Source: a virus (taxonomy: Duplodnaviria > Caudoviricetes). From it: a stretch of 64,000 nucleotides of DNA. Shown here piece after piece: positions 713 through 55,019 of this stretch (its first letter is position 1; the number at the start of each line of letters is the position of its first letter). A program made the position numbers and the translations under genes. The notes beneath the pieces were generated by a model that ran no database searches, was not told the origin of the DNA, and worked only from the letters and a program-made list of their open reading frames with translations. The stretch spans positions 96,001 through 160,000 of IMG/VR virus record IMGVR_UViG_3300034053_000029; one strand, written 5' to 3'.

Positions 713-1006
713 TCATTCACCCTTCTTTTTTCTTGTTTTTGGTTTCTTCTTTTGCTCTTCGACTTGTTCTTCAACCTGTTCTTGTTGAACTTCCACAACT
801 AATGGTTGAGCATCACCAAAAACACTTCCATCTGGCATAACCTCAACGCACAAATCATTTTGAGCAAAGTAGTGGCGACGGACTAATCCAGATGGGTCTT
901 TAGTGAAGAATGATACCTGAATATCGTTTTCAGTTTCTTCTTTAACGTCCCATCCCAATTTTGCGTAGCTGTCCTTCTTCGACAATGCATATTCTTTAAA
1001 ATTCAT
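713..1006 (-). CDS. Hypothetical protein (acidic, basic tail; N-terminus MNFKEY)
   Basis: 97-aa ORF tightly packed in an operon. Confidence 0.7.
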   Translation of the reverse strand: MNFKEYALSKKDSYAKLGWDVKEETENDIQVSFFTKDPSGLVRRHYFAQNDLCVEVMPDGSVFGDAQPLVVEVQQEQVEEQVEEQKKKPKTRKKKGE

Positions 1007-1563
1007 TTTAATCCCTTATGTTCTTTCACTATATCAAGTGCCTCGCCAATCATAGAAACTTTTGGAATGTCAATGTTAAATTTATTCATATACTTAGACA
1101 CTCTTTCAAAGTCATTCCTATATTTATAATAACACTCAATTAGGTTGTTTGGATTAGCCGACAGTAGGGAATCGGTAGCAACAATAAAGTTGTAAAATGC
1201 ATACCCATCAATAGTATTTGGATAGCACTCTACAATTTTTTCTGAGCTATCTTGTGGGATATTTTTTGATACGAACCCCTTGAACGATATATTTCCTTCG
1301 TGTATGGTTGGGGTTGAATGATTTGGAATACTGGAAGAAACCTTTTTGATTTCGGTGATCCAACTCTTGAATGTCTTGCCTTCTTTTATGAGAGTAACAT
1401 AATTTGGTCCAACATTGATCACTTCAGATATTTCACCATTGACTTCAACGGAATCTCCGACATTAACTAAATTTCCACGGATGAACGACTCACGATCATA
1501 TCTGGAATATGCTTCGTGAACGGATTTCGTTAGAGTTTTTGTTAGTTCTGAATATTTTTTCAT
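1003..1563 (-). CDS. Hypothetical protein with SH3/KOW-like beta-barrel
   Basis: RESFIRGNLVNVGDSVEV...GPNYVTLIKEGKTFKSWITEI; ATGA overlap with the next gene. Confidence 0.75.
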   Translation of the reverse strand: MKKYSELTKTLTKSVHEAYSRYDRESFIRGNLVNVGDSVEVNGEISEVINVGPNYVTLIKEGKTFKSWITEIKKVSSSIPNHSTPTIHEGNISFKGFVSKNIPQDSSEKIVECYPNTIDGYAFYNFIVATDSLLSANPNNLIECYYKYRNDFERVSKYMNKFNIDIPKVSMIGEALDIVKEHKGLK

Positions 1564-1589
1564 ATAAGTCCATAAATGTAATTGTTATA

Positions 1590-1820
1590 TTATTTATTGG
1601 ACTTCTTTTCTTTCGATTGAAGTTGAGCTATTATTCCACCCAATTTCTTAATACGAGTTTGGATTTTAATGCTATCTGGATCAGATGAATATTGTTGATA
1701 TAGCGCTTTTTGTGCACGAGATAATACTGGTAACTTCAAAGTCACTTCATCCAAACTTTCGGATTCGTTTTTACAATAGGTCTCGATGACCATATCACGC
1801 AATATTTCGGTTAATGTCAT
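1590..1820 (-). CDS. Hypothetical protein
   Basis: 76-aa ORF, translationally coupled to neighbour. Confidence 0.65.
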   Translation of the reverse strand: MTLTEILRDMVIETYCKNESESLDEVTLKLPVLSRAQKALYQQYSSDPDSIKIQTRIKKLGGIIAQLQSKEKKSNK

Positions 1821-2056
1821 TTCTTTTTCTTTCTTGTTAGACCTAAACCAATGATCGTACCTTGTAGCATATTTTGTTTAAATGATCTGTTGTTGGTTTT
1901 GATGGATGCTTGGCTAAATTTTTTCGGATGATATTTTTTAGGACGAGAAGTCAAACCATTCTTAGGAATTCTTTTCAACCGTGCAGGGGCAGAAGTCGGA
2001 GCTTTTCTGACTTCATCAAGTTCAATCGCAATTTGTTTTGCTTCGTTAATATCCAT
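1817..2056 (-). CDS. Small highly basic hypothetical protein
   Basis: 79 aa, K/R-rich after MDINEA. Confidence 0.65.
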   Translation of the reverse strand: MDINEAKQIAIELDEVRKAPTSAPARLKRIPKNGLTSRPKKYHPKKFSQASIKTNNRSFKQNMLQGTIIGLGLTRKKKK

Positions 2057-2696
2057 TTGTTACTGCTCCCCATGCCACGGCTTTACTTTTTAAATTTTCT
2101 GCCGAGTCGCCCATTGCCTTATTAAATTTATCGATTACAGTGTCATCTGTGCCATATCCAGGACTTATATGAGTAAACTCAATAGGTTTGTCATTCTTTG
2201 GGTCGAGAATGTTTGGGTCTTTGTGTGTCCCGAAAACAATGTGGGTTGGTTGTGGAGTTAATGCCGAATGATGAACTGTTATCGATTTACCATCATCCAA
2301 TTTCACCTTTGATAATCCATCTTTTTTTGAATCAATTATTGTGCCGTCACCATATACTGAATGGGTAACTCTTGCTGGCATCTGCGGAGTTTCTGTAAAA
2401 TGTGGATTGGATATTTTATATTGCTCGATTACCATCTTGATTTGATCAATCGACATATCAGTTTCACTAACCATTTTAGCTAATGGTGTAATAGGCTTTT
2501 TAAAAATAGGGATAACCCCTTTGGCACGAGGTTTTGGTGGAATTGCGTCTCTAACGATGATTGTTTCGTCATCACCCTTTGGTGCGGATTTTGCAACTTT
2601 TTCAACAGAATCTCTCGTTCCTGAATAAAATTTAGAAAATCCTTTTTGATTATTGCCTCTTAGTGCAAAACTTTTAGCCTCTTGAATGTTCATCAT
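2046..2696 (-). CDS. Hypothetical protein with SH3-like segment
   Basis: 216 aa; RVTHSVYGDGTIIDSKKDGLSKVKLDDGKSITVHHSAL. Confidence 0.7.
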   Translation of the reverse strand: MMNIQEAKSFALRGNNQKGFSKFYSGTRDSVEKVAKSAPKGDDETIIVRDAIPPKPRAKGVIPIFKKPITPLAKMVSETDMSIDQIKMVIEQYKISNPHFTETPQMPARVTHSVYGDGTIIDSKKDGLSKVKLDDGKSITVHHSALTPQPTHIVFGTHKDPNILDPKNDKPIEFTHISPGYGTDDTVIDKFNKAMGDSAENLKSKAVAWGAVTNGY

Positions 2697-2953
2697 TTAA
2701 TCAACCTAGTAGTCAATCTAGATATTGTTTTATCAGGGTCTCTATGATGCGAATATACTGGAATTATTTTTCCATCTTTATCTCTTTTAGCACCAACAAC
2801 GGCACGTTTCTTATCAGATTCATGATGGTCTGCCCCTAGCGATTTTGCCACAACTAAATTAGTGTAATGACTCAATAGCCTTTTTTTGCCTTCTGGAGTG
2901 TCCCCAAGCTCACATAAAGCAATCACTCTTTCTAAGATATATTCCTTTAACAT
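2693..2953 (-). CDS. Hypothetical protein (MLKEYILE N-terminus)
   Basis: 86 aa; first gene after late promoter 2975-2982; AGGA RBS. Confidence 0.7.
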   Translation of the reverse strand: MLKEYILERVIALCELGDTPEGKKRLLSHYTNLVVAKSLGADHHESDKKRAVVGAKRDKDGKIIPVYSHHRDPDKTISRLTTRLIK

Positions 2954-2974
2954 AATCGTCCTATTTGTTTTTAT

Positions 2975-2982
2975 TATTTATG
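2975..2982 (-). promoter_or_regulatory. T4-type late promoter CATAAATA
   Basis: Intergenic match to the TATAAATA late consensus, about 22 nt upstream of ATG 2953. Confidence 0.7.
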
Positions 2983-2989
2983 GTTTATA

Positions 2990-4465
2990 TTACATCTTAG
3001 ATAGAATGTCTTCATGACTGACATAAATCGTAGGTGCGTTTGGTTGTGTGATCGACTTGACTTCAAAACGACCAAAAACTGGTTTGGCAACGATTTCGCC
3101 AATCTTACCCTTACCATCTGCACCGGTGAATTTAATTTTATCTCCAACGTGAAAATGCTTGTCAAAATGCTCTGCATCAGGAATAGATTCGATGCGACTA
3201 CGGGGAGCCATCGTGGTGATGGTCATTCCCTTGAACGGAGAAGTGGCATACTCTTCTGGAGCAACGGTTCCAATCTTACCGGTAATCTCGACTCGTGCGC
3301 CTTTCTTAACACCATCATCACCAGACGATGTGAACATCTTGATCAGATGACCAGAATCTGCCTTAACGGTCAGGATGTGCTTGGTTCCCCAATCATTCTG
3401 ATAGCTGAATGCAGAGATAACTTCTCCCTTGACGGTAACTTTCTTACCTACCTCACCAAGACCTTCATCAGTCTTGACGGTTGACAACATACCTTTTTTG
3501 GCCTCAAGGTTTTCTACGTCCTTGAGGTATGAATTGGCACCGGCAGCAATATAACCGGTATATTTAAGCCCTGCAGACTCACCAGATGCGAGCTTGCTAA
3601 TATTGATCCAGAACTCTTCCTTGGTTGCCTTCGGGTGGTTTTTCATCCAGTCGATAGCCTTATCCGCATCTTCGTAATCCTTAGCGGAGACTGGCATGAT
3701 AAAATCTTGTGCATCTTTTTTCGGAGGATACATGTGCAGATTAACACCGGCAGAAGTGCTAGACTTCGTTTCGGTTGCATTTGCATTGGAAACAAACCCA
3801 CGATCACGGATGCTATGAATTGATGCGGCAACAATCTCCCTCACGGAGAATGCCATAACGCCTCGACCACCACCGCCATACTCAGGGTCTTGAATCTCAC
3901 TCATTACTTGCTTAATGTCCCACAATGCCGTAGCAAAATCGGCATACTTCTCAGGATCAGCATGACCTAAGAAGTCCTTGAGACAAGAACGACCAACTTC
4001 CATGTGCTTGCCGGATTCGTTCTTAACGACAAACGACTCATTGCGCCGACGATTGTGACCGCAATGATCGCACTTTATATCATGGTCATCTTGATATGTT
4101 GCAGGAAGTTCATGGCCTGGTGCAGACTTAGCAATGATCGAATTGCCGCCTTCCATCGGTTCACGCTTACCAACGAAAGACCAACCATTGAGCTTCGGTG
4201 CCTCACCAACGATGGTGACTTTTACGAACTCCATGAAAACGGCAGGTTTGATTTTGCCAGAAGCAAGTTTCTTTTCCGGTTCTACTTGCTTGGAAAACGG
4301 CTTGCTCTTGCTGATCGTGATAGGGTCAGCATTAAGCCTCTGAGCAGTCTTGTTAAGTTTGTTCAACATACCTTCAAGGAAGTCGATATTATGGACTGGA
4401 ACCTCAAAAACATTAGGTGTTGCCACTTCATTGTTTTCCACGATGAATTCCTTGTATGTCTTCAT
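2990..4465 (-). CDS. Capsid-targeting-sequence protein with Zn-binding motif, OB-fold-like and SH3-like domains
   Basis: N-terminus MKTYKEFIVE, similar to the T4 IPII/IPIII CTS MKTYQEFIAE; CDHCGHNRRR...VGRSCLKDFLG; C-terminal beta domains. Confidence 0.85.
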   Translation of the reverse strand: MKTYKEFIVENNEVATPNVFEVPVHNIDFLEGMLNKLNKTAQRLNADPITISKSKPFSKQVEPEKKLASGKIKPAVFMEFVKVTIVGEAPKLNGWSFVGKREPMEGGNSIIAKSAPGHELPATYQDDHDIKCDHCGHNRRRNESFVVKNESGKHMEVGRSCLKDFLGHADPEKYADFATALWDIKQVMSEIQDPEYGGGGRGVMAFSVREIVAASIHSIRDRGFVSNANATETKSSTSAGVNLHMYPPKKDAQDFIMPVSAKDYEDADKAIDWMKNHPKATKEEFWINISKLASGESAGLKYTGYIAAGANSYLKDVENLEAKKGMLSTVKTDEGLGEVGKKVTVKGEVISAFSYQNDWGTKHILTVKADSGHLIKMFTSSGDDGVKKGARVEITGKIGTVAPEEYATSPFKGMTITTMAPRSRIESIPDAEHFDKHFHVGDKIKFTGADGKGKIGEIVAKPVFGRFEVKSITQPNAPTIYVSHEDILSKM

Positions 4466-4477
4466 GTCAGAGTCCGT

Positions 4478-4506
4478 ATTATAGTTATAGTCTAATATTT
4501 AGTCAA
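4478..4506 (-). promoter_or_regulatory. Composite sigma70-type (TTGACT-17-TATAAT) and late (CTAAATA) promoter
   Basis: Minus strand TTGACTAAATATTAGACTATAACTATAAT directly upstream of ATG 4465. Confidence 0.75.
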
Positions 4507-4514
4507 GCGACTCT

Positions 4515-4850
4515 TCAACTGTCTGATTTATCTAGGAAACTTTCGTAGTCTGAAGTATCAAGCAATCCATCCTTTTTGAGCATTTTCTCAACAAACTGAT
4601 GAATCTCAACATCCGTCTTAGCATCCTCATGTGCCCACTCTAAGCATCTGATTAATAAGGGAACTGTCATGTGAATCTCGTCTTGATTGTTCTCATGTAA
4701 TGCCAACCATTTCCTATACAAAGGGTGCTTTTCACGTTTTCCTTTTGGCATTCCGTCTAATAATTTTCTCAAATAGTCAGGATCATTCTCAGGATTTCTC
4801 ATGGTCTCAATTAATTGAGCGATATCGGATACTAACTTTCTCATTTCCAT
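4515..4850 (-). CDS. Conserved phage hypothetical protein
   Basis: 111 aa; MTVPLLIRCLEWAHEDAKTD motif. Confidence 0.7.
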   Translation of the reverse strand: MEMRKLVSDIAQLIETMRNPENDPDYLRKLLDGMPKGKREKHPLYRKWLALHENNQDEIHMTVPLLIRCLEWAHEDAKTDVEIHQFVEKMLKKDGLLDTSDYESFLDKSDS

Positions 4851-6310
4851 TCCCCATTTACAATGAATATCAATTGTCTCTTACCATTCTTATATAAGAG
4901 ACAATGTGTTTGATGCCAACTAGATAAACCTTTATTATATTCCAATCTCAGTTTCGATGATGTTCCTACTTGATATGCAGATTTCTCAATTCCTGGTGAA
5001 TGACTATGACCGATAACAGTTTTAAGAGGAATTTGACTAAATTGCTGTCTCGATCCTCGTGTTCCATTAATTCCAATGTCACCATGATTATTTAGGTCAA
5101 CACCATGTAGAATAAAATCATCGTCTGAACTCAAGAACCTAACATTAGCTGAAGTGTTTATTCTTTCGCCATAAAGGGCAAATGGGTCTGGATAATATAG
5201 AACACCATTTTCATGTTTAGTATTCGACAACATCAAATACATCAGGTGATGGTAAATTTTAGCATTGACCATATCTTTCTTTGGGTCTGCCTCATTTAAC
5301 CAACGCATTAAGTGTGAATTGTGGTTTGATGGTACGATAATAGATTGACTAAAACTTGGAGTCGTTCTTTCGATAAACTGCAAAGTCTCATTTAATTCAT
5401 TCTCGATTGAATCAATATTCGCTAGTGACTTTCCATAACGAACAAATATATTATTCTTGTGGTGATGGGAAATCGAGTAGCAATCCAACACATCATGACG
5501 AATAATGTATTTTGGTTTTAGTGTATTAACAATCCCGTTTGTTCCGTATGTGGCATCATATACTTTCTCGTCATAAAACATAACGTGTTCGTCGCCAGTA
5601 ATTAGTGCCTCAATTTCGCAGTTTGTTACAATATTGTCTTCGGTATAGTATGTACTAATATCATACATACCTTCTCCGTCGAAATGAAGATGACGAATAT
5701 GGGTTGCAGTATGATCTACAAATAATGCGCTATACGAATGGTCGAACTTTGCCTTTTGTGCCGTCTTGTTCTCACCATAATTTGGAATGGAAACACTTCC
5801 GGTAGTCGTTATGATTGGTGGATATGTTTCAGATTTTCTTGGAAGAGTTTTTAGTTGAACTTGTGGGTGTCCAAAAATGACAGTTTTCCCCTTACTAAAC
5901 GAATCCATTCCACCAAGAGGGTTATTTAGATTGGTGCCTAGCTTTCCGTCACCCATAATGACAATATCATCACCAAGATGAACCTTAGTGTTTACGATAT
6001 ACTGCTTAATTTCTTCGTCGTAATTGCTCTCGTTGAACTTGTGATTATTGTTTACTGGAAGGATCACCAACTTCGAACCATGAATACGACAATAATTTTC
6101 TAGAACCTTTAGGAATCTCTTGTTGATTGGAAACCCATCGGTTGCGGAAGTGATAACGTAACTTTGGTTGAATACTGGTTTTGGTGTGCAATAGTCTACA
6201 TAGTTTTTAGTGCCACACTTGTTACACTTGTATGCTACCTTTCTTTTGTTGCCTAGATGATGTACCCCAAGATTCTTAAAGTCTAACGAACCACAATATT
6301 CACAATACAT
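4841..6310 (-). CDS. T5 A1-like metallophosphoesterase-fold protein with N-terminal Zn ribbon
   Basis: YVITSA, GDEH, HDVLD, PSNHN, HGD, GHSHSPGI...AYQVG...SSW motifs; N-terminal CEYC/CNKC. Confidence 0.75.
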   Translation of the reverse strand: MYCEYCGSLDFKNLGVHHLGNKRKVAYKCNKCGTKNYVDYCTPKPVFNQSYVITSATDGFPINKRFLKVLENYCRIHGSKLVILPVNNNHKFNESNYDEEIKQYIVNTKVHLGDDIVIMGDGKLGTNLNNPLGGMDSFSKGKTVIFGHPQVQLKTLPRKSETYPPIITTTGSVSIPNYGENKTAQKAKFDHSYSALFVDHTATHIRHLHFDGEGMYDISTYYTEDNIVTNCEIEALITGDEHVMFYDEKVYDATYGTNGIVNTLKPKYIIRHDVLDCYSISHHHKNNIFVRYGKSLANIDSIENELNETLQFIERTTPSFSQSIIVPSNHNSHLMRWLNEADPKKDMVNAKIYHHLMYLMLSNTKHENGVLYYPDPFALYGERINTSANVRFLSSDDDFILHGVDLNNHGDIGINGTRGSRQQFSQIPLKTVIGHSHSPGIEKSAYQVGTSSKLRLEYNKGLSSWHQTHCLLYKNGKRQLIFIVNGEWK

Positions 6311-6320
6311 ATTAATCCTT

Positions 6321-6860
6321 TCACTTATTCCATTTATGTAGAAGGTATTCTTTCGATGCCTTTGTCGGATTCTTCTCTTGATACTTACTAGAAGGGGTAA
6401 CGTCTTTAGATATTACCCTCTTTTTTGGTTCTTTATTTTTGTCATACAAAGCAATCTTATGTGTCTTAGCTAATTGCTCCCACACCTTATGTCCTGCGGT
6501 AGTCATGGTGGTCGAACTAAAAAAACTGTACCCATGTTTCTCATGCAAATGCGTTATCGCCTCGTGCATCATTTTTGGATGATCTGATTCTGGAGACTTA
6601 GCCATTTCGGTAATTCTTGCTGCGGTCTTACCTGCACGATTAAATGAAATAGTGCCGATATGTTCTCCGGTATCCTTGTGGTGAATGGTTATTAAACCGG
6701 TATCGCCATTATGATGAACACGAAGACCAAACCTGTCTGACTTCGTTTCGAGGTCTGGTTTGGTCTTCTGATCAAGTTTCTTAAACACAGGTGCCTCTTC
6801 ATCACTTGAGGCATAGTGTTCCTGCAGTTGAGATACTAATTGAGAATATGGTTTTTTCAT
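6321..6860 (-). CDS. His-rich GNAT-fold-like protein, putative internal protein
   Basis: SSTTMTTAGHKVWEQL segment; own late promoter; MKKPYSQLVSQLQE leader. Confidence 0.6.
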   Translation of the reverse strand: MKKPYSQLVSQLQEHYASSDEEAPVFKKLDQKTKPDLETKSDRFGLRVHHNGDTGLITIHHKDTGEHIGTISFNRAGKTAARITEMAKSPESDHPKMMHEAITHLHEKHGYSFFSSTTMTTAGHKVWEQLAKTHKIALYDKNKEPKKRVISKDVTPSSKYQEKNPTKASKEYLLHKWNK

Positions 6861-6885
6861 AAATACGCATCTGGTGTGAATACTA

Positions 6886-6892
6886 TATTTAG
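6886..6892 (-). promoter_or_regulatory. Late promoter CTAAATA
   Basis: Overlaps the gp41 stop codon, 25 nt upstream of ATG 6860. Confidence 0.6.
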
Positions 6893-8286
6893 CTAAAATC
6901 CAATCCGTCTAAATTGTGAACTCTCTTCCCAAAAGTAGTTTTATCAAATGCAGGAGTATCATCAGCAGACTTACTACCTGATCCATGAATATTTTCTGAT
7001 GGATTATCCACATCATATAATTTGAAACGAGTGATGTCTACTCCTACAGCAAATCGCTTATGGAAATTCACATCACCAAATCTAGACTTTAATTGCTTAA
7101 CCAAAAGCTGACCAATACCATCCATTTCCTCGGTTCTAATTAGTGCAAAAATAAAATCCATGGTTGCTGCAGTACCAAAGCTCTCTGCAATATCCGTCAT
7201 TTCTGAATCACTATTACTTGCCCCCAATCTAGTAAATTGGGTTGCGGTCATGATTGGGACATTGAACTCAACTGCCATACCACGAAGTTCCTCGGCAATC
7301 GACTTCACAATGGTATATGAATTAAATGCTCCACCACTTTTCAATCTCTGACTGCTACAAATATTCAAATAATCAACTAGGATAAGGTCTGGAATAAAAT
7401 TCTTCTTTTGTTTAAGCTCATTTAATAATGCTTTGAAGTGTCCTACATGTGCGCCACCTGTAGGATATTCTTTGATGATTAAATTTCCCTTGCCTCGACT
7501 ATGAATGTCGTTAATTTTCTTTGTGAAAGTGCCCTTGTCCAACCTACCCAAATCAGATATAGGAATGTTCAAGATATTACAATCGATTCGTTCTGCGATT
7601 CTTTCTTCCGCCATTTCCAATGTTATGTAAAGAACATTTTTACCTGACTTAATAGCAGAGGCGGCAGCATGACATAGGAATAATGACTTTCCAGTATTAA
7701 CACCTGCAACAACACATGATAGGGTTTTACTTGGAAGACCACCTTTCGTTATTCTGTTAAACATTTCCAGATCGAATGGAAGTCTCTCTTCAGTCAAATG
7801 ATAGAAATCATGGCGACGTTCAGCATCACTAAAGAAATCGTGACCAATGTTCTTGTCAAAAGAAACCCCCAACGCTTCTTGTAGGAGTGTTGGGATTGCC
7901 TCTTTATTGAACTTCGTGTTGTTGCCGTCGATAATAGAAATCGATTCCATAATCGCATTGTATAAGGATTGCTCCTTACAAAACTTTTCTGTACGCTCAA
8001 CCAACCATTCTTTATTTGTCTCTTTTTCAACTAACGAATCAATTAAACTGTTAGCCGAATCCATATCAGCTTGAGATAAATCTTTACGATCATCTAAATG
8101 CAACTTCAATACTTGTTGGGTTGGTGGTTTGTTATATTTCTCAAAAAACTTTTGAATATCTTCGAAAATTACTTTGTCAACTTTGTCAGAAAAATATTCT
8201 GGTTTAATGAATGGTAGAACCTTCCTACAATATTCCTCATTCGAAATTAAATTGCTAAAAATAACCTCTTCAATCCTATTTGTCAT
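6889..8286 (-). CDS. gp41: Replicative DNA helicase (T4 gp41, DnaB family)
   Basis: Walker A GVNTGKS, YITLEMAE, VDYL, ATQ motifs; 465 aa. Confidence 0.97.
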   Translation of the reverse strand: MTNRIEEVIFSNLISNEEYCRKVLPFIKPEYFSDKVDKVIFEDIQKFFEKYNKPPTQQVLKLHLDDRKDLSQADMDSANSLIDSLVEKETNKEWLVERTEKFCKEQSLYNAIMESISIIDGNNTKFNKEAIPTLLQEALGVSFDKNIGHDFFSDAERRHDFYHLTEERLPFDLEMFNRITKGGLPSKTLSCVVAGVNTGKSLFLCHAAASAIKSGKNVLYITLEMAEERIAERIDCNILNIPISDLGRLDKGTFTKKINDIHSRGKGNLIIKEYPTGGAHVGHFKALLNELKQKKNFIPDLILVDYLNICSSQRLKSGGAFNSYTIVKSIAEELRGMAVEFNVPIMTATQFTRLGASNSDSEMTDIAESFGTAATMDFIFALIRTEEMDGIGQLLVKQLKSRFGDVNFHKRFAVGVDITRFKLYDVDNPSENIHGSGSKSADDTPAFDKTTFGKRVHNLDGLDFS

Positions 8287-10401: not shown

Positions 10402-10409
10402 AATATCTC

Positions 10410-31383: not shown

Positions 31384-31391
31384 TATTTATG
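31384..31391 (-). promoter_or_regulatory. Late promoter CATAAATA
   Basis: 30 nt upstream of the kinase ATG. Confidence 0.7.
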
Positions 31392-34278: not shown

Positions 34279-34311
34279 TTGTGTTACTCCTTTTTATTGA
34301 TATTGAATTGT

Positions 34312-36849: not shown

Positions 36850-36850
36850 G

Positions 36851-39870: not shown

Positions 39871-40752
39871 TTAAACTCCTTCTTCTAAATTATTGTTATA
39901 TTTATGATTAATCATTGAGTCGATCTCAATTGAACACAGTAATTCACCAAAAGTGATGCTGTTATCCGTCCACTTACTTCTATTACTTATAGCCTTGATT
40001 AATTCTAGATTTTGAATTGATCCAATTAGTAATGGATTTATTTTATTTGAATATCCATATAAGCAAGAAATTTTATGATCAACATGTAGTCCGTTAATTG
40101 ATCTACCTTCAGTAATGAAAGATGAATCTCTACGAATGTATTTTCTTGTATATGAATAAACCAAACGGCGATATTGGTGAAAAGATTTCTTATCATAATC
40201 AAAATCAACTGGCACAATTTTATTTTTATTGAATATTGTCTTTATTCGCTTTTCCTGTACTTCTTCTGAAGACATTGAATTCTTATGCTTTTCTTTTACA
40301 GAATCAACCATCATTGGATTTGATACTCCACGATTTTTGATCATTGACTCTCTCGATTTTTTGTACGCATTTTTTGCATTATCTTTTTGAGCTTGTTTTG
40401 GTGTCGATTGTAGATTGCAAGAATGTCCGAATTTTTCAAAATTTGTTGATTTTGTTTTATTTCTAACATCATCATTATTCGAAGAGCATTGAATACTACA
40501 AAAATCAGCATATTTAGAAAGTGCTGCATGATATTTTGTTGATGATCCACACATTGTACATGTTGGTTTAGATTTTATTCCTAATAATAACGCACGAACT
40601 CTAACCGAAAGTTTTTCTTGCGTATCAAGAAAAGAAGTTGAACTAATAACCAAATCTCTCAGATCATTTGATATTTTTCTTTCAATCCACGGACTGATCT
40701 TATTATTCATATTGATCAGTCCGTTAGATTTTAGTGTATCCAACAAATTCAT
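39871..40752 (-). CDS. HNH homing endonuclease with Zn ribbon
   Basis: CTMC..FCS..C; HVDHKIS...NLELI..ISNRSK. Confidence 0.8.
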   Translation of the reverse strand: MNLLDTLKSNGLINMNNKISPWIERKISNDLRDLVISSTSFLDTQEKLSVRVRALLLGIKSKPTCTMCGSSTKYHAALSKYADFCSIQCSSNNDDVRNKTKSTNFEKFGHSCNLQSTPKQAQKDNAKNAYKKSRESMIKNRGVSNPMMVDSVKEKHKNSMSSEEVQEKRIKTIFNKNKIVPVDFDYDKKSFHQYRRLVYSYTRKYIRRDSSFITEGRSINGLHVDHKISCLYGYSNKINPLLIGSIQNLELIKAISNRSKWTDNSITFGELLCSIEIDSMINHKYNNNLEEGV

Positions 40753-43132: not shown

Positions 43133-43157
43133 TATTTATCTAATTCTATTATTCACA
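43133..43157 (-). promoter_or_regulatory. Late promoter GATAAATA with upstream TGTGAA
   Basis: TGTGAA-N12-ATAAATA upstream of gp18. Confidence 0.65.
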
Positions 43158-43985
43158 AGATTTTATTCTGCCAAGAATCCACCCGTTTGGTTGACTTCCT
43201 TCGTCAAAGAACTTTGCAATAATTCCATTATTGTATATTTTCTTATTTTTGGTGTGGTTATTTGGCCTATCTAATTTTCCTTTTATCCAATCTAGATTTG
43301 GATTTTTTGTAAAATATTCACGAACTCCATCATTAAACCATTCTTTACCTTTTGATCCGTTTGGTTTCCCTCTCTTCGCAAGTGATATGTTTATTTTATG
43401 TTCTTCTGAAAATTTTCTTCCGGACAATGCCAAACTATTTTTTCGGTTATGCTCTTCTGATTTTGGTATTCCTCTTGTCGATAGTGATTGCTTCTGTTTA
43501 GATTCTTCGGTTCGTATGTTTCCTTTTGATTTTCTTCCACCAACTTTGTATTTCTCTTCAGTGAGTTTCAATCCTTTATTCCAAGCTGATTTTTTGTTTT
43601 TATGTTTTGTTTGTTTCATCTTACTGATAGATTCTTTTGACTTTGGTACTCCCTTCAAGGGCGACACTTCTGGACACATCCATAATATTTCTTTGTTTTT
43701 GTGTACCTTTTTATTTAATTTGAGTGGGTTGTTCCAATTTTCAAGAATCATGTCCTGTTCAAATAAATATGCGTCCTTGTAGTCAAAAAATTCTGCAAGT
43801 ATGTCAATGTGAAAGTCGTAGAACATTGGTTTCACATATTTAGATGAAGTGAAATACTTAATTCCTAAATCTTCTGAAGAAGGAACAATGTTTGCCCATC
43901 TTGATCCAAAATAGAATTGTCCTGTTTCTTTATGTGTGAGCTTATAAACATAAGGCAATACTTTTGTTGATTCATAAATAATCAT
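43149..43985 (-). CDS. GIY-YIG (Seg-like) homing endonuclease with NUMOD3 repeats
   Basis: PYVYKL...FYFGSR...KYFTSS; AGGAG RBS before ATG 43985. Confidence 0.88.
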   Translation of the reverse strand: MIIYESTKVLPYVYKLTHKETGQFYFGSRWANIVPSSEDLGIKYFTSSKYVKPMFYDFHIDILAEFFDYKDAYLFEQDMILENWNNPLKLNKKVHKNKEILWMCPEVSPLKGVPKSKESISKMKQTKHKNKKSAWNKGLKLTEEKYKVGGRKSKGNIRTEESKQKQSLSTRGIPKSEEHNRKNSLALSGRKFSEEHKINISLAKRGKPNGSKGKEWFNDGVREYFTKNPNLDWIKGKLDRPNNHTKNKKIYNNGIIAKFFDEGSQPNGWILGRIKSCE

Positions 43986-44015
43986 GCTGGTTCTCCTTGT
44001 CAATGTGTTTAGAAC

Positions 44016-44049
44016 TAGAGTGGGTAGAGATTGCAGTCTCGTGACCCAC
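44016..44049 (-). ncRNA. Conserved hairpin leader, copy 2
   Basis: GTGGGT-CAC-GAGA-loop-TCTC-T-ACCCAC-TCTA. Confidence 0.6.
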
Positions 44050-44052
44050 AAT

Positions 44053-46135: not shown

Positions 46136-46147
46136 TTTAAATTTTAC

Positions 46148-46780
46148 CTATTCGTCGTGACCTAAAAGTTCTGCTCTCCAATAATGAGTTCGTTTACCAT
46201 TTGGGTGTTCGACTATTCTTGGATTCGCATGAATTCTCAATTTTGCGTTTCTTTTAATTAAAGTTTCTCGTTCATTGTCATATCTTGCTGCATCATTTAA
46301 TGGTATAGCATTTTGACCTTTTTTTGTTTCTATTTCTAGTATATGTTTATCTTTTTCGTTTCTATGTGTGTATGTAAAATTGTGTGCAACCTTTTCATCA
46401 TGAGTGGTGCTTATATACGCAGGGCAATGAACATCAATATGTGGTCTTGATTCGCCACCTTCATGTTTCTGAATTCTATCGAAAGTCTTTTGTGGTGATT
46501 CCCTTAATCCGTGATACAATTTTGCATCTTTTTTTATTCTGTTTGCTCCGTTACCCTCATCAAAAAGGGCATCAGTTTTATCTACCACTCTTTGATGCTG
46601 TTTAGATAATGGTTTTGGTTTCTTCATCTTTCCTTTAGAGTCAACGCCACCACCATCATGTTGTGCATGTAGAGCAGCATTAATTGGGGCACTATGAAAT
46701 GAATAGTCGTAAATGTCATGTGTATGGCTTTTATCTAAACCACCATATTCATGTTTTCTTTTTAAGTCCTCGAACTTCAT
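46148..46780 (-). CDS. ADP-ribosyltransferase (Alt/Mod/exotoxin-like fold), His-rich
   Basis: YS..S..IN..L; LYHG; AYISTT; NERETLI (ExE). Confidence 0.8.
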   Translation of the reverse strand: MKFEDLKRKHEYGGLDKSHTHDIYDYSFHSAPINAALHAQHDGGGVDSKGKMKKPKPLSKQHQRVVDKTDALFDEGNGANRIKKDAKLYHGLRESPQKTFDRIQKHEGGESRPHIDVHCPAYISTTHDEKVAHNFTYTHRNEKDKHILEIETKKGQNAIPLNDAARYDNERETLIKRNAKLRIHANPRIVEHPNGKRTHYWRAELLGHDE

Positions 46781-47547: not shown

Positions 47548-47550
47548 AAT

Positions 47551-48321: not shown

Positions 48322-48322
48322 A

Positions 48323-49252
48323 TTATCCTACTAGAAAACCCAGCGGTGCTCCATTACCTGCTGCTTCGTCCTCTAGTGCTTTCAATTCAGTCATTGCTTG
48401 TTCTAATATGTATTTTCCATCGTACTGTACTCCACCCGGCAGGGACATTCCAGAATATTTCGACAGCACCTGACCCCATGTTCTTTTCATTTTTGCCGTG
48501 GTGTATTTCTTTAACCAAGGATCGTTATACACCTCAGAATACACCTCTGGATCAAGACCAATGTAGCATTCAAACACATACCATGTTCCCACGTTCAAAT
48601 CCCAACTTGAATCATAGTATAAGTTATTCATCCGACGATTAAAACGATACGTCTTCTCTTTTCTCAATATGAAATCTAGATGACCAAGATAATTGAACGT
48701 CGAATACAAATAATTTGCCTGACCAGATGTGATGTTTCTAATCTCGTTAGCCATAATTTGATACTGGACATTAAACAAAATATCTGGATGATTCAATAAT
48801 CCGTTTGTATTCAATACTCTAGTGACAGAAAACACTTCATCTGGAAGCTCGATATAACCTTTATCCACGGTTCCTTTTGAAACGGTACTTATGACAGATG
48901 ATTGAGTTCCATTTGTCAAGGTCTGACCTGATGCACATATCGTACCAGTCGATGATTGAGTTGCTGATATGATATTTCCATCAACGGAAACTATGGTAGC
49001 AGAATATCCTTGTGAAGTCGTAACAGTTTGGTTTTCGACAAATCCTGTAGCATCGGCAACCGTAATTTTGGTTGGTGCAATTTGAAATTTGATGTAATTT
49101 CTCTCAATGCCCTCGTAATGATAGTCATTGAAATACTGAACGGCATCCTCTACTGCATCCTCAATTTGGTCTGGTGTCAATTCAATATTGACGATGCCGC
49201 CACCAAGTTGACGAAGTGCGTAACTTGCTAACTCCTGCCTACTTGAAATCAT
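48323..49252 (-). CDS. gp13: Neck protein (gp13)
   Basis: YALRQLG..IVNIE...QIED, YNDPWLKKY, WGQVLSKY, LPGGV. Confidence 0.96.
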   Translation of the reverse strand: MISSRQELASYALRQLGGGIVNIELTPDQIEDAVEDAVQYFNDYHYEGIERNYIKFQIAPTKITVADATGFVENQTVTTSQGYSATIVSVDGNIISATQSSTGTICASGQTLTNGTQSSVISTVSKGTVDKGYIELPDEVFSVTRVLNTNGLLNHPDILFNVQYQIMANEIRNITSGQANYLYSTFNYLGHLDFILRKEKTYRFNRRMNNLYYDSSWDLNVGTWYVFECYIGLDPEVYSEVYNDPWLKKYTTAKMKRTWGQVLSKYSGMSLPGGVQYDGKYILEQAMTELKALEDEAAGNGAPLGFLVG

Positions 49253-49950
49253 AGTCGATCCTTAATATGTTTGGTAAAATTTCCTATATCAAAAACTCTT
49301 TTACAACATATACAAGATACCTCTCTTTTGACCTCAGATATATGTTTAATGAAATTTCCATAATCAAATGTTCTATTACAACAAACACATGAACATTTGA
49401 TTATATGTCTGTTCATTGCTTTTTCTTTAATTTTGCCTTTTGTTTCATCAGAAACCAAATGTCCCCTGTTAATTTTACTAATTTTTCTCCCTAACGATTT
49501 GATTCTTTCATCAGTTTCTTTTGTTTTTCCTTTTGTCCAAGGCGTAATTCCTTTTAAACTAATACTCAATTTTTTCCTAGTTTCATCAGAAACAACTACA
49601 GTTTTTCCTTTATGAATTTTAGATAACTTTTGACGACCTTCTTCTGTTATATAGAATATTTTTTTATTGTTATGAGTACAAGACCTATTTAATAGTAGTG
49701 GATTTCCTAAATTGTTGAATATTAGTTCTTGTTCATATTTAATTGCATCAATTGGATCATCAAATTCTTTCAAAACTGTCCACTCATAATCATCTACATT
49801 ATTTTTTATTATCTTACTAGATGAAAAATATTTTATACCTAAATCGAATTCAGCCTTACATTTATTTGCTCTACGATATCCATAATAAAATTGATCAGTA
49901 AGTCTATTTACTGCAATATATACATATGGTTTCACATCGTCTTGCGTCAT
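49249..49950 (-). CDS. GIY-YIG homing endonuclease with NUMOD3 and tandem CxCC...GNF.KH fingers
   Basis: PYVYI...FYYGYR...KYFSSS, LLLNR. Confidence 0.85.
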   Translation of the reverse strand: MTQDDVKPYVYIAVNRLTDQFYYGYRRANKCKAEFDLGIKYFSSSKIIKNNVDDYEWTVLKEFDDPIDAIKYEQELIFNNLGNPLLLNRSCTHNNKKIFYITEEGRQKLSKIHKGKTVVVSDETRKKLSISLKGITPWTKGKTKETDERIKSLGRKISKINRGHLVSDETKGKIKEKAMNRHIIKCSCVCCNRTFDYGNFIKHISEVKREVSCICCKRVFDIGNFTKHIKDRL

Positions 49951-50492: not shown

Positions 50493-50501
50493 AATAATTC
50501 C

Positions 50502-50813
50502 TTATTCTGTACGAGACATACCAGATAATTCGTCTCTATCATCTGCTCGTTTAGGTAATGCTCCTGTATGTTTGGTTATGCTATGAATTTTTCCGTATAC
50601 ATTCTTACCACCACCACCATATTGACTATGAAGATGTGTTGTCATCGCAGAAAGATGTTCATCATCACCAACTTTACCACCTTCTAATGGGTCTGGTCCA
50701 CTAACAACTCTTGTGTTTTTCTTGTCTCCATGAGTAACAATGTAATTTGAGTGATCACGGAATTTTTCCGTTATAACTTGTCTGATTGCTTCGTGTAGTG
50801 AGTCAAAGTTCAT
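50502..50813 (-). CDS. Small His/Gly-rich late protein, putative internal protein
   Basis: MNFDSLHEAIRQVITE leader; own AATAAATA promoter at 50838-50845. Confidence 0.7.
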   Translation of the reverse strand: MNFDSLHEAIRQVITEKFRDHSNYIVTHGDKKNTRVVSGPDPLEGGKVGDDEHLSAMTTHLHSQYGGGGKNVYGKIHSITKHTGALPKRADDRDELSGMSRTE

Positions 50814-50843
50814 GATAATTCCTTTATGTGTATCGTATATTTA

Positions 50844-52208
50844 TTACTTACTGTCTATAGAAAATACTTTTCCACGAATCGTTGTTCCGCCATCCCTTGT
50901 GTAAAATGTCAAAATATCAACCCCATCTGAAGTCAATGTAGGAATGGTGCCACCATCCCATTTTGTATTGGCAAACCATGTTTGAGCAAATAAACCACCA
51001 TTCGTCAATTCGACAGTCCATGACGCAATTGTTCCACTTGATGGTAATCCAGTAATTGCCCATGATGTTACTGCAGTAGCACAAGTTGCATAATAAACAG
51101 CATCTGGTGAATATGCGATTGTCGTAGTTCCACTTGGAGTATATGAAGCAGCAACGGATGATGTACTATGTTTATGAACATCCATCTTGTTTAGGATGGT
51201 GTGCATGTTTGTGTCTGTGTTATCAAAGAACCCAACAAACGGCGCAACATCGACAATGATTTGGTCATCAGTCACTCCAGCAGCAAGTATTCTTGTCAAT
51301 ATTTTTCCATTTACGGCATGTGAATGTGCTACCGCACCAACAGCAACCGGATTGTTTGGTGCACTCGGTTTTGTTTTTGTCATCGCCCCTGGTGTTGATG
51401 GATGTAAGAATAGCACATCACCGTCATTCCAAGTTTCACCAACTGCAGACCCCGTTGTATTTAAATTGTGCAATATACCACTAGTAGTAACAACACCAAA
51501 AGCATTGTTTGTCATATCTGATGTGGCGATACCCAATACATCATAATTTGAATCTGTACTTGCTACCGCTAATGATATTGTTGGTGTTTGTCCTGACGCA
51601 CCACTTAATTTTACTACTTGACCATCAACAATAGTAGACCCCGAGGTATTTTTAACCTTTATCCACTGCTCAAATCCAATCTGCATAGAAGAACCAGAGA
51701 TGTCAGAATAATATGACAATGCCTTTTTATCGGTGTCATACCAAATTCTACCTTCTTGATATGCTGGTGCGATAACAGATGTGAAATTCAAATGATTTGT
51801 TATTGACCCATTCGACTCATCCACTTTCAAATCTAATGCAGTTTGGGTTGCCGACGAAACTGGTTTATTTGCATCTGAAGTATTATCGACGTTGCTAAGA
51901 CCGACATCTGATTTAGTGACCCCATGAGGATTACCTGTAGTTCCAATATGTGTCTGAATGTTCGCATTTGCTGGTTCATATGAGTGAGAGTGTACTGTTG
52001 GTGCATATGTTCCATCGTGATTATGTCCTGTTGCTGATTTTCCGCTTAATGCAGAATTCAAATCAGTTTGGTCTGCTAAAGTACCGGTAATGTCTCCCCA
52101 TACAAGATTTCCATCACCTGCTGGTCCTTGAACGCCTTGCGGTCCTTGAGTCCCAACAGTAACGACTGTAGTGACACCATTTTGCGAAATAACCGTAGTT
52201 TCACTCAT
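50844..52208 (-). CDS. Tail fibre-like protein
   Basis: Collagen-like GPQGVQGPAG, HNHDGTY/HSH and DVGLSNVDNTSD fibre repeats. Confidence 0.8.
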   Translation of the reverse strand: MSETTVISQNGVTTVVTVGTQGPQGVQGPAGDGNLVWGDITGTLADQTDLNSALSGKSATGHNHDGTYAPTVHSHSYEPANANIQTHIGTTGNPHGVTKSDVGLSNVDNTSDANKPVSSATQTALDLKVDESNGSITNHLNFTSVIAPAYQEGRIWYDTDKKALSYYSDISGSSMQIGFEQWIKVKNTSGSTIVDGQVVKLSGASGQTPTISLAVASTDSNYDVLGIATSDMTNNAFGVVTTSGILHNLNTTGSAVGETWNDGDVLFLHPSTPGAMTKTKPSAPNNPVAVGAVAHSHAVNGKILTRILAAGVTDDQIIVDVAPFVGFFDNTDTNMHTILNKMDVHKHSTSSVAASYTPSGTTTIAYSPDAVYYATCATAVTSWAITGLPSSGTIASWTVELTNGGLFAQTWFANTKWDGGTIPTLTSDGVDILTFYTRDGGTTIRGKVFSIDSK

Positions 52209-52549: not shown

Positions 52550-52966
52550 TTATTTTCTCCAAAATGCTTTAACCTTGATTTCTTTCGTCAATACACTATT
52601 TATGGTTGCTATGACATCTACAATAGATGTGTTCATTCTTCTAAACGATGCAAACACTTTTTCTAACGATGCTGCCATTAAGTAACTAACTGTTCTTCTC
52701 TGCTCCCATGTCTTACCTTTATGCTTTACTCTAACGATAATCTCATACGGACCTTCCCACGGTGTTTCAATGAATGGAGGTCTAACAATTCCTCCACCAC
52801 CTGCACCTTGTGGATTCTGAGGTACGATCTCAATTTCAATCGAACAACCAAATCCATTCGTTGCCATATTGAACGTAGAGAATCCTGGATAGATTCCCAT
52901 CGTAGCAATCTGCAAATGCTCCTGACAGACCGATTCAGATTCATTATGAAATACACCTAATAGCAT
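52550..52966 (-). CDS. Hypothetical structural-region protein
   Basis: 138 aa, packed in operon. Confidence 0.65.
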   Translation of the reverse strand: MLLGVFHNESESVCQEHLQIATMGIYPGFSTFNMATNGFGCSIEIEIVPQNPQGAGGGGIVRPPFIETPWEGPYEIIVRVKHKGKTWEQRRTVSYLMAASLEKVFASFRRMNTSIVDVIATINSVLTKEIKVKAFWRK

Positions 52967-52975
52967 GATTGGTTA

Positions 52976-54457
52976 TCAGATTTCCTCACCCCAACCAAGA
53001 ACCACTTCACTTGATCCGGCAGTGGAATCGTTGGTCACAATAAGGTAATCACCACGAACCAAATTCAATTCTAAATGACTATACGACAACTCTATAGATA
53101 CTCTAGCACCTGCTTCCACAGTAATCGCACGAATAAACTCAAGATTTGCCACGGTTACTGCCGTTGCTCTTACTGCACTCACATTCATGTCAGTTGAATC
53201 GGATTGAACGAATGAATGTTTACCACCATATCCTGCAACTAAAGTTTCACCTGTAATATCAGCAGCACTTCGAGTACGCCATAATTTAAACGTGCATTTC
53301 TTAGTGTTATGAACTGATAATGTTCTCAAATGAATAGTGCGAGTATTAACTAACGTACCAATTAAAAGAGGATTATGAACAACTAAAACTGGTTTATCTG
53401 CACCAGTAGTCGCTACTGCTTGTGAATAGGCTGATCCCCATTGTTCTGGCGTCTCTTTACCATTCTCAGATGTTATATCTACGCAACCAATTATAAGAGA
53501 GCAATTGGCAACTGCTGCATTTGCTGTGGTTGCTTTGAATGCTATAGGTAGAGCAGGATTACTCATACTTAATGCAGTAAGAGTCCCCAACAAAGACATA
53601 GTATGAACATGAATGTTGTTGATGAAGAACTTATAATTTCCCATTCCACGCCATTGATATTGAATATCGTAAGTGTTACCCGCTTCAACATTGAATCCTG
53701 GAACTCCTGCAGTACTAATTAGTTGCTCTGCTACTTCAACGGTTAGCGATCTGCGTACTGCGTATAACAAACCATCTGCTTTTAGGCGAAAGAATATACC
53801 CGCATCAATGTTTTGAACACCCCACTCTCTAACACATCCTGTTGCAGTCTTGCTTGGACAAATCAGTGCAGTTGAAAACAAATGACCACGATTGGGTTGA
53901 TATGGTGGGCACACTCTAGATTCAAGTAATAAATTTGTTTTTCCTGTTGATGTAGTAAGAACTGCTGCTCCACCTGTAGATACGATGTTAGTAGAGGTGT
54001 AAACTTGTACGCCACCTTCGTATGTAAACCACATTTTTGTTGGTATGTCAAAAGTGAACATCCCATGAAATAGCGAGAACGGAAGAGACATTTTCTGAAC
54101 ACCCCAAGCATCTTCCGTAAGATCACCAGAACCTAGAGTGCCACTAATAGGAACAGGTGTTGCTCTCAATTGAGCATCGGTCAATGGTCCTGAGACTGGT
54201 TGTGTCGCTTGATAAAACGATCCAGAAACAGGAACTGCTGCTGCTCTCAATTGTGCATCTGTCAATGGTTGCGATAACCCAGTATTGGCAGTAACTGTGC
54301 CGGAAACAGGCAATGGATTGGTAGCACTAATGTCACCATCATTCACTCCATCATCACCATGAATCAGTTTTACTCTCTGGTATTTTGCACCGGCAATCTC
54401 ATCTGCTGCAATGACTGCTCCACCAATACCAGGATTTAGGGTTACATTATCTGCCAT
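52976..54457 (-). CDS. Virion structural protein (beta-sandwich/lectin-like) with PLTDAQLRA repeats
   Basis: 493 aa; two PLTDAQLRA..VP.SG repeats. Confidence 0.75.
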   Translation of the reverse strand: MADNVTLNPGIGGAVIAADEIAGAKYQRVKLIHGDDGVNDGDISATNPLPVSGTVTANTGLSQPLTDAQLRAAAVPVSGSFYQATQPVSGPLTDAQLRATPVPISGTLGSGDLTEDAWGVQKMSLPFSLFHGMFTFDIPTKMWFTYEGGVQVYTSTNIVSTGGAAVLTTSTGKTNLLLESRVCPPYQPNRGHLFSTALICPSKTATGCVREWGVQNIDAGIFFRLKADGLLYAVRRSLTVEVAEQLISTAGVPGFNVEAGNTYDIQYQWRGMGNYKFFINNIHVHTMSLLGTLTALSMSNPALPIAFKATTANAAVANCSLIIGCVDITSENGKETPEQWGSAYSQAVATTGADKPVLVVHNPLLIGTLVNTRTIHLRTLSVHNTKKCTFKLWRTRSAADITGETLVAGYGGKHSFVQSDSTDMNVSAVRATAVTVANLEFIRAITVEAGARVSIELSYSHLELNLVRGDYLIVTNDSTAGSSEVVLGWGEEI

Positions 54458-54467
54458 TTTTCACTTT

Positions 54468-55019
54468 CTATTTTGCCCTAGCTACGACGTATGTATTTTT
54501 CAAATGATTTTTAACTGTATGTTTATCTTTCTTTTTTGGAACTTCATCACCATACTCATTGTCTGGTTTCTCAATTTGCTTTCTACCTTTGTGATATGTT
54601 AATTGAGTATCTGACATTTCACCAACTCTATCCATAACAGTTTTTCCACCTTCAGAATACTCATCTGAACCAATTGCTTTGATGCCTTGCTTATGAATGA
54701 GGTGATGAATGAGGTGATGCATCTTCATTGATCCATCAGACTTTTCATGTTTAGACATGGCATCTATACTTAGATGACCTTCATGTTCCTCGCCCCATAT
54801 TGAAAGATCATTCACTTTTGTCTTCTTATTCTTTGCCCAATATACGGTTTGGTCATGAATATTGGTTCCTCTATGGATAGTATGAGTATCGGTCTCACCA
54901 ATCTTCTTATGATCAAGATTCCAGTTTTCATCTTTTTTAGAGACATTCCAATCCATATTTTTTGGGATGTTTTTGTTTATGAATGCCATTTCTGAAATAT
55001 ATTCTTTAAAGGTTATCAT
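54468..55019 (-). CDS. CTS-bearing His-rich GNAT-fold-like protein
   Basis: MITFKEYISE leader; SDEYSEGGKTVMDRV. Confidence 0.7.
   Translation of the reverse strand: MITFKEYISEMAFINKNIPKNMDWNVSKKDENWNLDHKKIGETDTHTIHRGTNIHDQTVYWAKNKKTKVNDLSIWGEEHEGHLSIDAMSKHEKSDGSMKMHHLIHHLIHKQGIKAIGSDEYSEGGKTVMDRVGEMSDTQLTYHKGRKQIEKPDNEYGDEVPKKKDKHTVKNHLKNTYVVARAK

Follow-up and report, generated by a model that had tools for sequence, protein, structure and literature searches.

The 64,000-nucleotide stretch analyzed here (the window) spans bases 96001 to 160000 of a viral genome that is complete at 210,171 bp and carries direct terminal repeats (IMG/VR record IMGVR_UViG_3300034053_000029), and which PHROG and Pfam scans identify as that of a myovirus of the T4 superfamily. 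We find that this phage has probably kept and expanded the system by which T4 loads nonstructural proteins into its head. The T4 tag is the textbook route for carrying proteins into the next cell, and three small proteins and Alt are, to our knowledge, all that travels by it in nature. In this phage, a T4-type tag is found on about a dozen His-rich proteins, including a kinase-fold protein and a pair of GNAT-fold proteins, and we therefore consider that ready-made enzymes are probably injected with the DNA. A preliminary description of the window had proposed eight dispersed genes as such cargo. They are listed below in window numbering; each gene is named in the text by its start coordinate (e.g., 4465, 55019, 31353, 6860), and nearly all window genes lie on the minus strand.

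2990 to 4465, minus strand: 491-aa tagged protein, a phrog_2319 body with a Cys cluster; tag MKTYKEFIVE (DNA 4436 to 4465), short linker, CTAAATA box at 4496 to 4502.
54468 to 55019, minus strand: 183-aa GNAT-fold protein; strict tag MITFKEYISE (DNA 54990 to 55019), disordered linker of ~25 residues, domain at about residues 36 to 183.
30505 to 31353, minus strand: 282-aa kinase-fold protein; 17-residue IPI-type leader MTFHTFSDFLTSTILSE (DNA 31303 to 31353), ATAAATA box at 31384 to 31390.
6321 to 6860, minus strand: 179-aa GNAT-fold paralogue of 55019; 14-residue leader MKKPYSQLVSQLQE (DNA 6819 to 6860), CTAAATA box at 6886 to 6892.
50502 to 50813, minus strand: 103-aa orphan, candidate internal protein; 16-residue leader ending in VITE, 7.8% His, ATAAATA box at 50838 to 50844.
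2693 to 2953, minus strand: 86-aa orphan, weaker candidate; MLKEYILE, 5.8% His, 12.8% Lys, ATAAATA box at 2975 to 2981.
46148 to 46780, minus strand: 210-aa ADP-ribosyltransferase (ART) of the R-S-E type, between gp15 and the small terminase; PF03496, 1.2e-8, 34.9 bits against a cut-off of 23.4.
713 to 1006, minus strand: 97-aa open reading frame (ORF) with an MNFKEY start; no [LI]xE near the N-terminus, 1% His.

All eight N-termini read exactly as first described. When the eight proteins were run against Pfam and PHROGs, the ART (PF03496) and 4465 (phrog_2319) were the only ones to find a match. The T4 tag is MKTYQEFIAE (PMC8442874), as we also read it in the T4 record, and its first ten residues are enough for loading foreign proteins. 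Suppressor studies in T4 assigned residues 4 and 7 to targeting and residues 8 and 10 to processing (PMC9026906). The leader of 4465 equals the T4 tag at 8 of 10 residues. When all gene starts of the genome were scored against KTYQEFIAE, six genes reached at least 20 directly after Met, against ~0.08 expected from internal positions; the strict 10-residue tags of 4465 and 55019 scored 38 and 24. An independent matrix, built from 72 leaders of metagenomic relatives with the window proteins and their two closest homologues left out, gave these two tags 20.3 and 22.3 bits. Applied to the 889 candidate start codons of the genome, this matrix retrieved 8 genes at 11.9 to 25.2 bits, with the next best at 3.8 and an expected number of 0.07 at a 10-bit threshold. 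As a positive control, the same matrix retrieved from a 17-kb stretch of T4 only ipIII, ipII, and ipI (13.1, 13.1, and 11.4 bits; next, 5.4). Of these eight strict-tag genes, the window contains 4465 and 55019. The six others comprise five in two clusters (genome positions 53696 to 56791 and 165810 to 167955) and one that stands alone (84806 to 85435), and one of the six starts at TTG, its true start being hidden behind a longer ORF. One of the tagged, His-rich genes in these two clusters encodes a 572-aa protein (MIRFKAF..., with 7.7% His) that matches Pfam GP88 (2.7e-8), and the tagged genes at 84806 to 85435 and 166380 to 166940 are paralogues (35% identical).

The aromatic positions are Y4/F7 in 4465 and F4/Y7 in 55019, and the same pattern recurs, shifted, in the long leaders of 31353 and 6860. 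Six window genes have leaders ending in [LI]xE (IVE, ISE, LSE, LQE, ITE, and ILE), and the site is missing from 1006 and the ART. T4 likewise uses either the 10-residue tag or a longer leader with the same type of end: that of IPI, read from the T4 record, has 19 residues (MKTFKEFTSTTTPVSTITE, the counterpart of MTFHTFSDFLTSTILSE here), and a cut after its Glu would yield a protein of 76 residues, which agrees with the size given for mature IPI (PMC3012670). The end of the 50813 leader, VITE, resembles the ITE of IPI.

The preliminary description had left it to homologues to show whether the leaders are conserved, and for 55019, 6860, and 31353, as well as in one relative of 4465, they are. 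In a 103-sequence family around 55019, M1, E10, F4, and position 8 are among the best-conserved columns, E10 is kept in at least 90% of the members, and the mean information per column is 2.56 bits in the leader, 1.69 in the folded domain, and 0.95 in the linker. The corresponding logo has F or Y at position 4 in 69 of 75 leaders and at position 7 in 61 of 75, and the 6860 subfamily shares the leader MK[ST][YF]x[EQ][LI]xxxLxEH. Six homologues of the kinase (33 to 60% identity) carry its leader, with F6 and E17 invariant and the site [ILV]xE followed by E/D-[LI]-H/A-P, and a 49%-identical IMG/VR homologue of 4465 starts with MISFKDFLSE followed by a ~100-aa linker. Within the genome, the leaders differ in synonymous codons, which argues for selection on the peptide and not on the DNA. 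In structure models, the leader forms a short helix, and the linker between it and the domain is predicted with low confidence.

The genome also encodes a T4-type head protease, scaffold, and major capsid protein, as well as a factor for late transcription.

36208 to 36912, minus strand: gp21-type prohead serine protease (Peptidase_S77); PF03420 8e-20, phrog_207 1.4e-55.
34312 to 35553, minus strand: gp22-type scaffolding core protein; phrog_237 5e-68, 22 [LIV]xE sites.
32968 to 34278, minus strand: gp23-type major capsid protein; phrog_138 2e-149.
26440 to 26961, minus strand: gp55-type late sigma factor; phrog_234 1.7e-46.

The gp21-type protease is presumed to remove the leaders, and the maturation site of gp23 is probably between MLQE53 and AG. 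Other T4-type genes found by PHROG and Pfam encode portal, sheath, tube, both terminase subunits, and gp13/14/15 among head and tail proteins, and DNA polymerase, gp41-type helicase, UvsX, ligase, clamp loader, rIIA/B, and gp46/47 among replication and other proteins. The phage is nevertheless only distantly related to T4, since its capsid protein is nearest to that of Pelagibacter phage HTVC008M (60% identity), followed by other aquatic "far-T4" phages; a megablast search with 8 kb of the window gave no match among deposited phages.

Late expression was assessed by counting the hexamer TAAATA (nTAAATA as the box) upstream of start codons genome-wide in 10-nt bins. A peak appeared at -31 to -40, with 25 occurrences in that bin against ~4 in other bins, and boxes also precede the tail tube gene, structural genes, and homing endonucleases. 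The gp55-type sigma factor is expected to read them. Most of the candidates had been said to have their own late promoters or to sit in late operons. Five of them (2953, 4465, 6860, 31353, and 50813) have a box 27 to 36 nt upstream of the start codon, and the other three (55019, 46780, and 1006) are internal to operons, which for 55019 and the ART are structural ones. The 55019 gene, without a promoter of its own, follows an 806-aa ORF (55022 to 57442). Genes 4465 and 6860 lie amid replication genes, a setting that we liken to that of the T4 ip genes amid early genes. Given the boxes and the gp55 homologue, the candidate genes may be expressed late.

Capsid targeting of at least four window genes (4465, 55019, 31353, and 6860) is thus well supported: their tag positions are identical to those of T4, their leaders are conserved more than their bodies, and late promoters occur in a genome that also encodes a scaffold, a gp21-type protease, and a late sigma factor. 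Of the leaders originally put forward, these four stand beyond chance, 50813 and 2953 are plausibly tagged and uncorroborated, and 1006 and 46780, which lack both [LI]xE and the aromatic pattern, are set aside; 1006, with 1% His in addition, is not credible as a tagged protein. We find it very improbable that the shared N-terminus serves here not as a capsid tag but as an amphipathic helix for oligomerization, as a binding site for a host factor, or as a translation-initiation context. Packaging does rest on analogy, three of the eight strict-tag genes have no TAAATA box within 80 nt, and a leader profile that finds eight genes in this genome and the ip genes in T4 finds no convincing tag in HTVC008M, the nearest cultured relative by capsid protein, which was scanned whole. 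This last result indicates that distant T4-like phages have the tag system only in part, and its role could have changed. On the other side, the conserved positions are precisely those used by T4 for targeting (4 and 7) and cleavage (8 and 10), a gp21 homologue is present, the codons of the leaders differ, the leader stands before unrelated folds from which disordered linkers of variable length set it off, and the depletion of Cys described below fits storage outside cells. A strict DNA pattern for the leader matched 10 places in IMG/VR; of five records checked from these matches (fragments 8 to 21% complete), only one had a gp23 gene, and a T4-like origin of the other four is thus putative.

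The AlphaFold model of the kinase-fold protein, 31353, has a bilobal kinase fold (predicted local distance difference test [pLDDT] score, 85; predicted template modeling score, 0.81). The leading Foldseek rows in PDB and Swiss-Prot are all protein-kinase-like (PsiK at 1e-4, Rio1, PRPK/Bud32, PINK1), and all VIA rows are kinases, with Z 8.0 to Rio1 (root mean square deviation [RMSD] of 4.4 over 160 aligned residues) and Z 7.8 to PRPK. In BFVD, the best row has an E value of 7.7e-10, lower named rows are phage and giant-virus kinases, and uncharacterized proteins of RaK2 and CBB match as well. Structure prediction thus bears out the kinase fold that had been claimed. The motifs are a P-loop (G64SSR), K92, E117, H235-P-G-D238-x4-N243, and D261-A-G263; G64-S-S-R, K92, E117, H235/D238, N243, and D261/G263 are invariant in 7 kinase sequences and lie on the expected secondary-structure elements. 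Since the five catalytic residues and the P-loop are invariant down to 33% identity, we argue that catalysis has been retained, and we read the product as a predicted active minimal Rio/Bud32-like kinase. Like Rio1/Rio2 and Bud32/PRPK, its best structural matches over ~160 residues, it is compact and has no activation loop, and by eye its S-G-S-S-R-V-Y type of P-loop resembles the STGKEANVY of Rio. It differs from them in lacking a sequence-level match (identity, 9 to 14%), in its 11% His, and in being phage specific. A tblastn search of 50,697 deposited phage records gave no match to it, and its profile found no kinase among PDB sequences, the sole, marginal match (0.092) being to the G-S loop region of 4jlx and 4kb6, which are deposited as "Uncharacterized protein" and which we take to be cGAS. 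A nucleotidyltransferase reading was discarded, as the D-x-D motif is not conserved and the fold searches all give kinases. A distant homologue is encoded in another T4-like contig between gp47 and UvsW, with TATAAATA upstream; it contains 6.2% His, against 0 to 3.8% in its neighbors.

The two GNAT-fold proteins, 55019 (8.2% His) and 6860 (7.8% His), are paralogues at an E value of ~1e-5. A profile search of 1.84 billion representatives collected 146 clusters at an E value of ≤1e-3. Their median His content is 7.65%, and in a set of 147 sequences that were examined, at least 77 begin with the tag. None of 103 family members matches Pfam, acetyltransferase models included; the pair has no match in PHROGs, and neither paralogue has one by tblastn in the 50,697 phage records. 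The fold comes from structure prediction: the 55019 model (pLDDT, 84.8) gives a VIA Z of 9.2 (RMSD, 3.0 over 115 residues) across residues 38 to 183, and the rows are all GNAT or GNAT-like in VIA and all but one weak row so in the Foldseek search of PDB. The best AFDB cluster row (E value, 2.4e-5) is named GNAT-family acetyltransferase, and a viral cluster of the ESM Atlas, 62% of whose members have Acetyltransf_1, matches the model at template modeling scores of 0.63/0.70. The GNAT-like label given earlier to these proteins is correct as to fold, and the canonical motif for binding coenzyme A (CoA) is missing. Whereas GNAT acyltransferases have a Q/RxxGxG/A loop between beta4 and alpha3, the phage family, which shares their fold over residues 38 to 183, as also found in the regulatory GNAT-like domain of Mycobacterium tuberculosis ICL2, has instead a conserved S..KAH.FYHHLI..HG segment. 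In 55019, loop residues 91 to 99 read HEKSDGSMK, where the family consensus is S..KAH, and the conserved part of the family is a helix-strand-helix core with H106, G124, G125, and S122. Acyl transfer is therefore only a possible activity of these proteins: they lack the CoA loop, and what their model resembles most in PDB is a noncatalytic acetyl-CoA sensor.

The His counts reported at the outset were exact: 31/282 in the kinase (11.0%), 19/210 in the ART, and 14/179 and 15/183 in the GNAT-like proteins. Relative to the remaining ORFs with 75 residues or more, tagged proteins (a set of 13 genes) are rich in His (medians, 8.2% versus 2.1%; p 7e-8) and Lys (12.3% versus 7.9%; p 5e-5) and poor in Cys (0.0% versus 1.2%; p 1e-4). 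His reaches 7.5% in only 3 of 236 other ORFs, all of them dubious short ones. The His bias is new, because T4 internal proteins and Alt have only 1 to 2% His. Internal [LI]xE sites are also rarer in tagged proteins, at 0.42 per 100 residues against 0.93 in the others (p 0.003). A depletion of Ser, Thr, and Tyr, as reported for phages bearing the T7 kinase (T7K), was not seen in the tagged proteins.

Such a composition would also suit proteins that act inside the head as DNA-condensing, charge-neutralizing, or head-assembly parts, a role that has been put forward for T4 IPIII, their enzyme folds being relics or scaffolds. In T4, phosphates of the DNA are contacted by lysines of the internal proteins, and head assembly is influenced by IPIII (PMC3012670, PMC9026906), and the GNAT-fold family is without a canonical CoA motif. 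We nevertheless hold this alternative to be unlikely, as the kinase keeps its catalytic residues and P-loop invariant at 33% identity and the GNAT-fold family conserves a specific core (H106, G124, G125, S122) and not charge alone. Besides the leaderless HTVC008M and the absence, by inspection of the GNAT-fold family, of the CoA loop, several points weigh against our view that the phage loads and injects enzymes. Every functional step rests on analogy with T4, as this uncultured phage is represented by metagenomic sequence only. The structural scores of the kinase and GNAT models are middling (Z 8 to 9; Foldseek PDB E values of 1e-4 to 5e-3), and the kinase has no match in Pfam at an E value of 0.1, Pkinase, RIO1, and APH included, or in PHROGs. 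Two of the 13 genes in the first composition set had first been noticed by their His content, a circularity that does not affect the test on the matrix-defined strict eight alone (p 6.5e-6). The depletion of [LI]xE loses significance when judged against each protein's own composition (p 0.09). Finally, 50813 and 2953 have no relative in IMG/VR with which their leaders could be compared.

The ART is a real late-operon enzyme, its fold supported by Pfam and its motifs intact (R93, S124-T-T, and E170-R-E172); it aligns weakly with Vis, with STT and ERE on the STS and EAE of the latter. The suggestion that it is capsid cargo draws no support from its leader. The N-terminus, MKFEDLKRKHE, has neither the aromatic pattern nor [LI]xE, and so no T4-type tag; the protein contains three internal [LI]xE sites against 1.5 expected, and it shows no similarity to T4 Alt. 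We therefore lean slightly toward a cytoplasmic late enzyme, unpackaged like T4 ModA/ModB and outside the injected set. The only hints of packaging are its place in a late operon and its richness in His: at 9.0% His, it belongs to a class held almost only by tagged proteins, and it is translationally coupled to gp15 in the head/neck operon (its start overlaps the gp15 stop codon). The single homologue that was found (95% identical) keeps the same genomic position. T4 Alt, moreover, is packaged with a noncanonical propeptide of 6 to 7 residues, MELITE (PMC9026906). Alt sets the precedent: it is an enzyme that travels in the head and, once ejected, modifies proteins of the host. The window likewise has an R-S-E ART in a late operon. 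However, Alt has 682 aa, the MELITE propeptide, and 1% His, whereas the window ART is a bare 210-aa catalytic domain without an [LI]xE leader.

The body of the 491-aa protein, 4465, belongs to phrog_2319, a widespread viral family listed as of unknown function, and the earlier label of nucleic-acid binder was not confirmed. It has no match among PDB sequences, and its structural matches in the Atlas, unnamed viral clusters only, begin at residues 17 to 18. No leader is present in the homologues from Vi01, Vibrio phage D525 (KVP40-like), and Tunturi_5. As members elsewhere are leaderless and the 49%-identical relative is tagged, an existing protein has acquired the tag in this lineage only. The phrog_2319 gene is close to a gp41-type helicase gene (window 2990 to 8286), and the untagged homologue of Salmonella phage Vi01 has the same neighborhood, which suggests an old replication-module gene later turned into capsid cargo. 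For the orphan 50813, a single metagenome match proved spurious (a high-GC bacterial contig, in a noncoding frame). Directly upstream of this gene, a 454-aa protein (50844 to 52208) has collagen-like G-x-x repeats near its N-terminus and weak tail-fiber matches.

By analogy with T4, at least four window genes (4465, 55019, 31353, and 6860), probably 50813 and 2953, and at least six genes elsewhere would be transcribed late. Each product would bear a leader in which position 4 is aromatic, position 7 is F, Y, or L, position 8 is L or I, and position 10 is Glu, longer IPI-like versions ending in [LI]xE. The leader would bind the prohead scaffolding core, as in T4 IPI to IPIII, a gp21-type protease would cut after the leader Glu, and the mature protein would stay with the DNA and be ejected into the next host. 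The cargo would comprise a minimal Rio/Bud32-like kinase, two GNAT-fold proteins of a metagenome-only family, the phrog_2319 protein, and small orphans. We infer packaging, cleavage, ejection, enzyme activity, and a role in host takeover or antidefense from this analogy, along with injection and action before phage transcription. The injected toolkit of modifying enzymes first envisaged would keep the kinase and the GNAT-fold proteins, which have the tag, and perhaps not the ART, which has none. Going further, it is conceivable, with a probability somewhat short of even, that a premade kinase and acyltransferase-fold proteins delivered with the DNA modify host proteins, including defense proteins, before phage genes are expressed, that the His- and Lys-rich, Cys-poor makeup is an adaptation to storage in, and exit from, a DNA-filled capsid, and that the 146-cluster family represents widespread unrecognized injected effectors in freshwater and other environments.

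The closest known system is that of T4 IPI to IPIII, which similarly consists of late genes with their own promoters encoding Lys-rich proteins, with unrelated bodies behind a shared tag, in a genome with gp21 and gp22. T4 has three small nonenzymatic internal proteins with 1 to 2% His, whereas here there are at least 12, mostly with 5 to 11% His and several with enzyme folds; the tagged genes are also, unlike the T4 ip genes, partly dispersed among replication and structural genes, in a distantly related phage. The giant phages SPN3US and phiKZ have other cleavage motifs and long propeptides, and are not known to use the T4 10-residue tag. Many proteins inside their heads are reported to be loaded via propeptides, which a gp21-related protease removes, and to be ejected (PMC5694885, PMC7411985); in this, their ejection or inner-body proteins would resemble the cargo proposed here. 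A third comparison is with T7 gp0.7 (T7K), a hyperpromiscuous kinase that disarms defenses (PMC13645617). Both would be phage-encoded enzymes of protein-kinase fold for the very start of infection, and T7-like kinases are among the weak structural matches of the window kinase (E value, ~1e-3). T7K, however, is an early gene product made after DNA entry and unpackaged, with a DPV motif and a C-terminal DNA-binding/shut-off domain, whereas the window kinase has a D-A-G motif, no extra domain, a late promoter, a capsid tag, and no match to any PHROG.

Reviews already describe T-even internal proteins as a diverse set with nothing but the tag in common, and propose that T4-like phages can use it to load varied proteins (PMC3012670, PMC9026906). 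What is novel here is accordingly narrower than was first held: the principle is in the literature, and the new points are that the tag has survived almost perfectly in a distant phage, how many genes carry it, that these include a kinase and a large GNAT-fold family, and the His-rich, Cys-poor composition. With the leader as a simple sequence rule, injected effectors of metagenomic T4-like phages can be predicted, and such leaders are directly testable in the established T4 packaging system. Our analysis suggests that a phage can bring phosphorylation along instead of having to express it, a point relevant to the recent finding that the T7 kinase disarms defenses, and it raises the physical question of why capsid cargo should be so rich in His and poor in Cys.

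Other features of the structural region deserve mention. The 33-nt gap upstream of the major capsid gene (34279 to 34311) contains no TAAATA box; T4 gene 23 has its own late promoter, and the capsid gene here may be read through from the scaffold gene. Invasion of the structural module by homing endonucleases is unusually heavy, with six such genes between core head and tail genes, all on the minus strand (31387 to 32862, 35550 to 36125, 39871 to 40752, 43149 to 44051, 49249 to 49950, and 58542 to 59363). They are of the HNH and GIY-YIG types by PHROG, except that 49249 to 49950 is assigned by N-terminal likeness only, and three of the six (31387 to 32862, 35550 to 36125, and 58542 to 59363) are each preceded by a TAAATA box. 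A 2492-aa ORF at the edge of the structural region extends from window position 61131 to 64000 and on to genome position 164609; its first 950 residues have no PHROG match. Just downstream of the kinase gene lies a second, divergent tail-tube-like gene (29619 to 30110; phrog_45, 6.6e-20), far from the main tube gene at 39280 to 39867.

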